A DNA stretch of 16,302 nt, taken from a virus. The number at the start of each line of letters is the position of its first letter. Positions within the stretch are counted from its first letter, which is position 1. Positions 5,847-5,994 of the stretch are shown here, in pieces. The notes under the pieces are model-generated. The model had not been told where the DNA came from. It made no database searches and saw only the letters and a program-made list of their open reading frames with translations. Where the stretch lies: the IMG/VR virus record IMGVR_UViG_3300042517_000935; one strand, 5' to 3'. The translations under genes were made by a program, and so were the position numbers.

Positions 5847-5899
5847 TTACCAACTGTTCATATATTATGTGCTAGATATGGGTTTGTCAACACATAATA

Positions 5900-5907
5900 T
5901 ATAAATA
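5900..5907 (+). promoter_or_regulatory. T4-type late promoter motif TATAAATA upstream of HNH endonuclease copy 1.
   Basis: Exact TATAAATA, preceded by GTCAAC at 5885-5890 and 88 nt upstream of the ATG at 5995. The same GTCAAC...TATAAATA arrangement occurs at 13333-13347 and 15211-15225. Confidence 0.45.
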
Positions 5908-5940
5908 AAGATGGTAATCCTGTTGCTACGAACAACAGGA

Positions 5941-5978
5941 AACCCGGCTTGGAGCCCCAGGCTGTCCCACACATATAT
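5941..5978 (+). promoter_or_regulatory. Conserved structured 5'UTR element (hairpin plus UCCCACAC box), copy 1.
   Basis: aacccggcttggagccccaggctgtcccacacatatat forms hairpin CGGCUUGG-AGCC-CCAGGCUG. Its paralog at 13381-13418 forms CGGCUCGGA-GUGC-UCCGGGCUG, with a compensatory U-A to C-G change. Confidence 0.45.
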
Positions 5979-5994
5979 TTACTTGGAGATTCCT

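Follow-up and report, generated by a model that had tools for sequence, protein, structure and literature searches.

What is the role of the conserved, structured leaders that precede the homing-endonuclease genes in a 16,302-nucleotide (nt) stretch of viral DNA (IMG/VR record IMGVR_UViG_3300042517_000935, the whole of which is referred to here as the window)? Three endonuclease open reading frames (ORFs) are found in it, two of which (HNH1 and HNH2, 51% identical as proteins) encode Mob-like free-standing homing endonucleases of phrog_655, with mobE of Sinorhizobium phage phiM12 as the best cultured relative (approx. 38% identity). The T4-type late-promoter box TATAAATA occurs at exactly three sites (5900, 13340 and 15219), only on the plus strand, each 64-97 nt 5′ of one of the three endonuclease ORFs, against a chance expectation of 0.32 and with none of 200 shuffles giving three. 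By taking into account both strands of a large set of homologous leaders, it is proposed that the region 5896-5994 and its paralogue at 13340-13436 are probably copies of a portable sense/antisense module that restrains translation of the homing endonuclease.

The T4-type late promoter is an 8-bp box approximately 10 bp 5′ of the start and without a −35 element; the box spans −13 to −6, so that +1 is the sixth nucleotide after it, and late transcripts may have either polarity (PMC2988020). The three exact TATAAATA boxes conform to this definition, and NATAAATA variants are found across homologous leaders, NATAAATA being the late motif of T4-like cyanophages (PMC2984593). Two other genes of the window have late-box-like motifs, with short, unstructured leaders that lack the hairpins described below.

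The leaders of HNH1 (copy 1) and HNH2 (copy 2) share a block that is identical at 5940-5954/13380-13394 and at 5960-5972/13402-13414 and is found nowhere else in the window. An initial interpretation made from the window alone (the sequence-only reading) had proposed that in both genes a late box is followed by this block, folding as a hairpin of 8-9 bp in which a U-A pair is exchanged for C-G, and this was confirmed for what is now called hairpin B (CGGCUUGG-AGCC-CCAGGCUG, 5945-5964, −11.9 kcal/mol, in copy 1, which has the U-A pair; CGGCUCGGA-GUGC-UCCGGGCUG, 13385-13406, −14.5 kcal/mol, in copy 2, which has C-G). A second hairpin (A), missed at that stage, lies directly 5′ of B (5918-5940 in copy 1 and 13358-13380 in copy 2); its sequence is wholly different in the two copies and its position is identical, and in copy 1 it differs from the 97%-identical relatives by two compensatory pairs (CCTGTTG/CAACAGG versus CCATTTG/CAAATGG). 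Hairpin A and a short closing helix make up the element P1, and the predicted +1 of the sense mRNA is base-paired. Within hairpin B of copy 1, positions 5948-5954 hold CUUGGAG, a copy of the block that contains the Shine-Dalgarno (SD) sequence of HNH1.

Leaders of this kind (type 2) were gathered from metagenomes and IMG/VR, the first further ones by protein-based retrieval and more of them through DNA patterns, to a total of 37 distinct sequences. A covariance model (R1) built from the first 19 finds the 37 leaders and nothing else in the approximately 0.86 Mb of that search, and has no match in 80 other HNH loci. In the 37-leader alignment 98.6% of the cells are paired and 11 pairs show compensatory changes; the covariation score was reached by none of 500 shuffles, so that the covariation which the sequence-only reading had suggested following in homologous leaders is indeed kept. 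Covariation is far stronger in hairpin A, where all seven variable pairs are compensatory and wobble pairs are absent from either strand, than in hairpin B (97.6% paired, four pairs changed on both sides and three on one). The register of hairpin B gives 219 Watson-Crick and 70 G-U cells with no A-C on the plus strand, the same 70 cells being A-C on the minus strand, and the description of the shared hairpin as a conserved, covarying plus-strand RNA between the late box and the SD thus holds for the whole set. The distance from the late box to the first paired base of P1 is 5 nt in 36 of the 37 leaders.

Searches of the databases gave little else. With Rfam 15, only two tRNAs pass in the window and nothing relevant is found at E ≤ 10 around either copy; the exact 16-mer CCRGGCTGTCCCACAC has 38 matches in IMG/VR, all in unrelated coding sequence; a loose pattern run over 185,579 bacterial and archaeal genomes gave chance matches only, none of which passed the hairpin filter; and neither the whole window (megablast) nor the leader (blastn) matches any of 50,697 phage records. 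A leader of this kind is not present before mobE of phiM12, the closest cultured homologue. The element is best regarded as a widespread phage family and not as a private feature of two paralogues; it appears to be undescribed, in a lineage that appears to consist of freshwater phages with T4-type late promoters.

The minus strand of the same leaders carries conserved signals of its own. A convergent late-promoter-like box is found in 32 of the 37 leaders, 5-8 nt before TGGGA, as NATAAATA or NGTAAATA (variants ATAAATA in 12, GTAAATA in 19 and TTAAATA in 1), and is seen on the plus strand as the invariant UAUUUA just 5′ of the SD. An RNA beginning at the sixth nucleotide past this box would start at the first base of a helix (P0′, 4-8 bp) that in almost every leader closes a junction with two further hairpins, B′ and A′; its 5′ end, GUGG or AUGG, pairs with CCAC or CCAU just before a U-rich tail, and the helix extends to 6-8 bp in three leaders (L305, L283 and L274). 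Because one arm of P0 lies upstream of the plus-strand start site, the helix is possible only in a minus-strand RNA, and its third pair, read on the plus strand as A-T in 12 leaders, G-C in 18 and A-C in 6, corresponds to 30 Watson-Crick and 6 G-U pairs on the minus strand. The register of B′ is shifted with respect to that of hairpin B and gives 192 Watson-Crick, 62 G-U and 5 unpaired cells on the minus strand, the plus strand giving 62 A-C. Columns 49 and 71 of the alignment (G-C 23, A-U 9, G-U 3, A-C 2) show an association that is predicted only by the minus-strand register. When the minus-strand sequences were submitted to RNAalifold, P0′, B′ and A′ were recovered with 18 pairs, 9 of them compensatory. 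The conserved structure specific to the antisense strand thus includes P0′ and the second register, B′, as well as the outer helix of the type-1 leaders described below, whose G-U pairs would be A-C on the plus strand.

The shifted register acquires a meaning when the SD is considered. In every lineage, the SD block is repeated in hairpin B, across the 3′ half of the 5′ arm and the first part of the loop (CUUGGAG in window copy 1; CUCGGAGG, UCUGGAGA, CUAGAGGA, UCAGGAGU and UAUAGAGGAA in others). Within a leader, this copy and the SD block are identical at a mean of 6.7 nt, compared with 4.2 nt when the two are taken from different leaders (0 of 10,000 permutations). In the minus-strand register, the B′ loop is exactly complementary to the SD copy and, by the same token, to the SD block itself. 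The calculated duplex between the B′ loop and the SD has a mean energy of −11.2 kcal/mol within a leader versus −6.3 kcal/mol between leaders (15 classes; 0 of 20,000 permutations); the duplex predicted for copy 1, CUCCAAG:CUUGGAG, has −10.6 kcal/mol, and that of copy 2, which belongs to the sub-group without a minus-strand box and has GGAGU only, −7.4 kcal/mol.

Several other functions were considered for the hairpins and set aside. Alternate pairing of the SD with the 3′ arm of hairpin B, as in a switch, was rejected as the main explanation, since the arm is no more complementary to the SD of its own leader than to those of other leaders (p = 0.37), the OFF state is calculated at +3 to +11 kcal/mol and a shuffle control was not significant. 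A mimic of tRNA or of an RNase P substrate (a hairpin followed by UCCCA), a decoy SD for the 30S subunit and a RegB-like cleavage site all leave the mirroring of the bases that flank the SD unexplained. A leader peptide was dismissed, the leader of copy 1 being open and in frame with HNH1 and those of copy 2 and L184 breaking the frame, and so was a riboswitch or ribozyme, there being no Rfam match and two simple hairpins only.

A second, unrelated leader leads to a similar picture. Most IMG/VR homologues of the HNH protein are preceded by a different leader (type 1, commoner than type 2), in which NATAAATA is followed by a hairpin whose bulge is invariably CGCG or CACG, by CUCUAAC and by a short covarying hairpin around the SD. 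For this leader 80 of several hundred HNH loci were examined, and 38 distinct sequences were collected from approximately 65 of the 80 (L039-L118 in IMG/VR; e.g. L074:2921-3000). RNAalifold gives 11 pairs, 9 of them compensatory, and no Rfam match at E ≤ 0.1 was obtained in 11 type-1 loci. A covariance model (R2) built from 38 other loci matches the leader of the third endonuclease of the window (15219-15285; 44.9 bits, E = 1.5e-6), which therefore does have a conserved hairpin, contrary to what the sequence-only reading had stated; R2 finds no match elsewhere in 150 kb of type-2 loci. Homology between the two types was considered and rejected, neither model finding leaders of the other type.

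A minus-strand box is also found in type 1, in 34 of 34 leaders, placed over codons 2-3 of the endonuclease gene and kept there by two peptide solutions, MYL and MIFI (ATG TAT TTA and ATG ATA TTT AT), that share one DNA motif. In the window, the predicted antisense RNA (approx. 15294 to 15215) would cover the start codon and the SD and end with the hairpin P1′ and a U/A-rich tail. Read on the plus strand, the type-1 P1 stem has 367 Watson-Crick, no G-U and 10 A-C cells, and the latter are therefore wobble pairs on the minus strand only. RNAalifold folds the minus strand into two hairpins with 16 pairs (11 compensatory), the first with an anti-SD loop and an invariant G-U that would be A-C on the plus strand, the second followed by CACUUUUAUUUAU.

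From the observed conservation, covariation, strand-specific wobble pairs, box motifs and loop-SD co-evolution we infer a mechanism in which both RNAs would be made, the antisense RNA would terminate at its U-rich tail and repression would take place by pairing. The plus-strand late box would start the endonuclease mRNA at the first base of the 5′-terminal helix P1; since P1 abuts hairpin B without a linker, the 5′ end would be buried and the mRNA probably stabilized, with hairpin B locking away a copy of the gene's own SD block. The convergent minus-strand late box, between hairpin B and the SD, would start an RNA of approximately 60-75 nt, the first four bases of which would pair just before the U-rich tail (P0′) to close a three-way junction, and the shifted register of B′ would leave the exact complement of the SD block in a loop of 9-15 nt. 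By analogy with IS10 RNA-OUT, P1 c4 and hok/sok, such an RNA could bind the exposed SD, the complementary leader or both, so that translation of the toxic nuclease would be held down; the SD would be overlapped directly in type 1 and reached through the loop in type 2.

The proposal is also supported by the genes found behind the type-2 leaders. At least six nuclease architectures, unrelated to one another, are represented (Mob-like N-terminal HNH; another HNH family, phrog_10822; zinc fingers with a C-terminal HNH; zinc fingers with DUF559; zinc fingers with PD-(D/E)XK; phrog_23051; and phrog_681/559), so that the element is not specific to this HNH lineage, contrary to what had been considered. 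The downstream ORFs that could be scanned are nuclease-like in all but two cases, namely a 138-residue ORF (L152b) that matches no family and an ORF (L211a/L121) with only zinc fingers and a PHROG of unknown function. At the HNH2 site, locus L168 is homologous to the window until the ATG and again from 14192, past the HNH2 stop, and between the homologous parts it has the ORF of a zinc finger-DUF559 nuclease unrelated to HNH2; the intact gene is present at this site in L168, L155 and L256, and its 3′ remnant can be recognized in the window. The HNH2 ORF is thus read as having taken the place of the 5′ part of the zinc finger-DUF559 gene behind the same leader. As judged from these comparisons, it is the leader that stays constant while the ORFs that follow it change, unrelated nuclease ORFs being exchanged because the module is shared, and the earlier suggestion that the element is part of the mobile cassette came close to the mark. 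A bolder generalization, which we put forward tentatively and with rather less confidence than the proposal for the two window copies, is that large freshwater phages would equip their free-standing homing-endonuclease genes with a portable 'governor' cassette of approximately 75 bp that would comprise two convergent late promoters and two strand-specific RNAs, with an anti-SD loop co-evolving with the SD of the gene and a hidden decoy, that would exist in two unrelated versions (types 1 and 2) and that, instead of the nuclease, would be the conserved unit.

A number of observations weigh against the sense/antisense proposal. Only nine leaders were retrieved through the protein and three quarters were found by patterns; since these patterns fixed GGTAAT, AAACC, TGTCCCA or AACCCGGCT, the invariance of these segments is overstated (all four are already present in the nine protein-retrieved leaders), and the alignments were made by fitting to the model. 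The promoters have all been assigned by motif, with the variant GTAAATA accounting for 19 of the 32 minus-strand boxes, and homologues of gp55, gp33 and gp45 are absent from the 16.3-kb window, no search aimed at gp55 having been made. Five type-2 leaders have no minus-strand box (window copy 2, 13340-13439; L168; L155, 5093-5192; L330; L274). The three 'C-type' leaders among them show the weakest SD mirroring, copy 2 sharing only GGAGU with its SD (13428-13432), yet L330 and L274 mirror 6-7 nt of the SD without having a box. In the minus-strand folds a hairpin or closing helix is followed by a U-rich tail, and a consensus terminator scan flagged none of these sites; in type 2, where a closing helix of 4 bp precedes the tail, the arrangement is not that of a canonical terminator. 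Finally, the predicted antisense RNA is fully complementary to the sense leader too, which could titrate the loop or lead to action through RNase III instead.

With these reservations, the alternatives can be considered in turn. The sequence-only reading saw in the leader a regulator of the 5′ untranslated region acting on the sense strand, so that P1 and hairpin B would stabilize or tune the mRNA and the minus-strand features would be by-products. It is in keeping with the plus-strand specificity of hairpin B, as given by its 70 G-U cells, with the paired state predicted for +1 and with copy 2, which keeps the structure without a minus-strand box, as well as with an SD core that is unpaired in a fraction of only 0.3-0.55 of the ensemble, since UCCCA can pair with GGA. 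It leaves unexplained the covariation of P0 with its minus-only wobbles, the 5′ arm of which lies upstream of the plus-strand start, the association of columns 49 and 71, the conserved minus-strand boxes and the copying of the SD block by identity into loop positions, the pairing of the 3′ arm with the SD being disfavoured by the p value and OFF-state energies given above. Thus the plus-strand-specific sense hairpin stands, but a regulator acting in sense only explains just a part of the conservation, because the opposite strand carries a box, helices of its own and an SD-matched loop that it does not account for, and we consider it unlikely as the explanation of the element.

The minus-strand transcript could also be the structured 5′ leader of late read-through into the divergent tRNA or other minus-strand genes, with the cassette supplying a late promoter. 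The arrangement in the window, where the endonuclease genes stand head-to-head with minus-strand tRNA or tRNA-like genes, and the weakness of the type-2 tail as a terminator would agree with this, and T4 homing-endonuclease cassettes do carry promoters for neighbours (PMC2988022). In many type-1 loci, however, the upstream gene is co-directional with the endonuclease, so that read-through would be antisense to it; the type-1 hairpin followed by CACUUUUAUUUAU resembles a genuine terminator, and the loop-SD co-evolution is left without explanation, which makes this alternative improbable. Even less probable, in our view, is an element acting at the level of DNA, that is a single-stranded DNA hairpin or cruciform serving recombination, homing or cassette exchange, with the leader as a homology arm or nuclease target. 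The precise swapping of ORFs behind the leader, the 175-nt replacement that ends exactly at the late box when the window is compared with 97%-identical relatives, the lack of wobble pairs in hairpin A and the fact that G-T is tolerated in DNA too can all be cited for it. Against it, each strand has its own register and the wobble patterns are opposite, the boxes keep a fixed distance (5-8 nt) to the first paired base, the U-rich tail and the loop-SD complementarity are features of RNA, and a common DNA recognition site is unlikely because the associated nucleases belong to unrelated families. Plain paralogy, that is recent duplication of a cassette with a functionless hairpin, to which the presence of only two copies in the window and their modest single-sequence folding z-scores (−1.5 to −2.3) might point, is dismissed as next to impossible in view of 37 distinct leaders from many samples, the unrelated ORFs and the pairing kept by compensatory changes.

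Table 1. Features of the three endonuclease leaders and adjoining sequences in the window.
Feature	Position	Strand	Details
Sigma-70-like promoter TTGACA-17-TAATAT, for divergent tRNA-like gene	5862-5890	−	10/12 matches
T4-type late-promoter box TATAAATA of HNH1	5900-5907	+	Predicted +1 at G5913, sixth nt past the box
P1 of HNH1 sense leader	5913-5944	+	Closing helix GGU 5913-5915/ACC 5942-5944; hairpin A arms 5918-5925/5933-5940
Hairpin B, HNH1 leader	5945-5964	+	Arms 5945-5952 and 5957-5964; loop 5953-5956
UCCCA, invariant	5965-5969	+	Complement UGGGA is the 5′ end region of the predicted minus-strand RNA
Convergent late-promoter-like box AGTAAATA	5976-5983	−	Predicted +1 at G5970
SD block CUUGGAG of HNH1	5982-5988	+	SD core GGAG 5985-5988; complementary to B′ loop
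Predicted antisense RNA, copy 1	5896-5970	−	P0′, B′, A′, U-rich tail 5910-5896
P0′ of copy 1 antisense RNA	5970-5967 with 5914-5911	−	
B′ of copy 1 antisense RNA	5963-5957 with 5947-5941	−	Loop 5956-5948 (GGCUCCAAG), anti-SD
A′ of copy 1 antisense RNA	5940-5918	−	
HNH1, Mob-like free-standing HNH homing endonuclease, probably truncated	5995-6483	+	162 residues versus 245 in relatives
Sigma-70-like promoter TTGACA-16-TATACT, for divergent tRNA-like gene	13310-13337	−	11/12 matches
Late-promoter box TATAAATA of HNH2	13340-13347	+	Predicted +1 at G13353
P1, copy 2	13353-13384	+	GGU 13353-13355/ACC 13382-13384; hairpin A arms 13358-13364/13374-13380
Hairpin B, copy 2 ('C-type')	13385-13406	+	UCCCA next, 13407-13411
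HNH2, Mob-like HNH homing endonuclease	13437-14183	+	
3′ remnant of zinc finger-DUF559 endonuclease ORF displaced by HNH2	14192-14391	+	
Sigma-70-like promoter, −35 box TTGACT	15215 to 15187	−	9/12 matches
Type-1 leader of third endonuclease	15219-15285	+	Box 15219-15226; bulged hairpin P1 15232-15261
Type-1 minus-strand unit	15215-15307	−	Late box AATAAATA, 15307 to 15300

The surroundings of the leaders (table 1) also called for a correction. Most neighbouring genes and tRNAs of the window are on the minus strand, and each endonuclease gene is head-to-head with minus-strand tRNA or tRNA-like genes having sigma-70-like promoters. The hexamer GTCAAC, which stands before every one of the three TATAAATA boxes and had been assigned to the late promoter, corresponds in complement to TTGACA, the −35 hexamer of these minus-strand promoters; it therefore belongs to the predicted divergent promoter and is not a late-promoter element. 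As to the downstream genes, the product of HNH1 has probably lost its C-terminal (NUMOD3) part, since the 97%-identical relatives (P0001) encode the longer protein listed in table 1.

The tRNA-like gene at 5715-5840 (minus strand) has an acceptor 3′ end, a T arm (CUCCG-UUCGAAC-CGGAG) and a D arm, with an insertion of approximately 50 nt at the expected place of the anticodon loop, and is called by neither ARAGORN nor Rfam; an intact tRNA with anticodon CAU is found at this site in relatives (as in L132). The replaced segment mentioned above corresponds to window positions 5726-5900. A degenerate tRNA-like sequence at 13207-13293 (minus strand) has a perfect acceptor stem, a T arm and CCA and is without a normal D arm; it scores 26.3 bits with the Rfam tRNA model, versus a gathering score of 29, and ARAGORN is silent. 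Since a late box, GATAAATA, at 13320-13327 (minus strand) sits within the spacer of the sigma-70-like promoter at 13337 to 13310, this minus-strand tRNA-like gene may have overlapping early and late promoters, an arrangement described for RB49 and S-PM2.

Among the other minus-strand genes, that at 6804-9374 encodes an 856-residue protein with the shoulder and repeat domains of the major vault protein (Pfam E = 3.7e-19), whose homologues among phage records are only found in uncultured huge phages of 462-735 kb (LR756500-LR756503, 37% identity); a minus-strand terminator serving this gene was considered for the folds of the leader and rejected, the gene having a strong terminator of its own at 6776-6751. 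A TilS-like PP-loop ATPase of the tRNA(Ile)-lysidine synthase family is encoded at 9334-9936, and the cluster that contains its gene adjoins the tRNA with anticodon CAU in relatives, which suggests that the phage makes its own lysidine-modified tRNA-Ile. A saccharopine-dehydrogenase-like gene (467 residues, 11172-12575), beside which R2K ATP-grasp genes are found in relatives, may mark a polyamine-related auxiliary metabolic cluster.

The closest known systems to which the leaders can be compared are the T-even homing-endonuclease genes (I-TevI, I-TevII, I-TevIII, segB and Aeh1 mobE), in which the ribosome-binding site (RBS) lies inside a hairpin and the late promoter within its 5′ arm, so that late transcripts lack the inhibitory arm and escape the hairpin (PMC2988022). 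The combination of a T4-type late promoter and an RNA structure before a homing-endonuclease ORF is the same, as is the presumed aim of limiting a toxic nuclease. Here, however, hairpin B ends at least 20 nt 5′ of the SD, and the minimum-free-energy folds include the SD in neither P1 nor hairpin B; the whole structure lies 3′ of the predicted start site, with the box placed 5 nt 5′ of the first paired base; and there is no upstream transcription on the same strand, the upstream neighbours in the window being the divergent minus-strand tRNA-like genes with their own promoters. The defining features of the RBS-sequestering mechanism are thus absent, to judge from the predicted folds and starts. 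We know of no antisense partner described for the T-even hairpins, and, to our knowledge, restraint of free-standing homing endonucleases within their own phage is known only for a few T-even examples.

In IS10 RNA-IN/RNA-OUT and in type I toxin-antitoxin systems such as hok/sok, a selfish or toxic gene has convergent promoters at its 5′ end, and a small structured antisense RNA pairs through its loop with the initiation region. The present leaders resemble these systems in the convergent box of the opposite strand, conserved at the level of the motif in 32 of 37 type-2 and 34 of 34 type-1 leaders, in a conserved structure proper to the antisense strand and in a loop complementary to the translation-initiation region; the type-1 antisense RNA would overlap the SD directly. 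They differ in that both promoters are, as motif calls, phage late promoters, in the different registers used by the two strands and in the type-2 antisense RNA, which does not overlap the SD and would act via a loop complementary to a sequence that the sense hairpin conceals. In the c4 antisense RNA of P1 and P7, which acts on ant/icd, loops pair with short targets that include an RBS outside the c4-encoding region. The matching of an antisense loop to an RBS that lies outside the region encoding the RNA is common to both cases, whereas the type of phage, of promoter and of regulated gene differ, and c4 is obtained by processing of its target's own transcript.

Antisense RNAs over homing-endonuclease genes exist in T4-like phages, as exemplified by CfrI of S-PM2, an RNA of approximately 225 nt that is co-expressed with the endonuclease gene, links it to the 3′ end of psbA and has no known function (Millard et al. 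2010, as summarized in PMC2984593). CfrI shares with the present case its position antisense to the gene of a homing endonuclease and the NATAAATA late promoters of the phage; the RNA predicted here is shorter (60-75 nt), is located at the 5′ leader and has no psbA near it. On the sense strand, the pairing predicted for the first nucleotide of the mRNA and the possible stacking of P1 on hairpin B recall the 5′ stem-loops of the ompA type; the stabilizing role is here deduced from the fold and would leave the sequence conservation of hairpin B unexplained.

By comparison with all these systems, the element would represent a new form of control by leader and antisense RNA that accompanies homing-endonuclease cassettes; it is widespread, being present in hundreds of environmental phage contigs, and is absent from Rfam. 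It would offer a concrete, testable case of antisense-RNA control from T4-type late promoters and of one DNA stretch encoding distinct structures on both strands, and the shared leader would explain the replacement of unrelated nuclease genes at one site. For uncultured large phages, the two covariance models provide a means of annotating late promoters and homing-endonuclease cassettes. Set beside the RBS-hiding hairpin of the T-even phages, the module would be a second, different solution to the problem of keeping homing endonucleases harmless.

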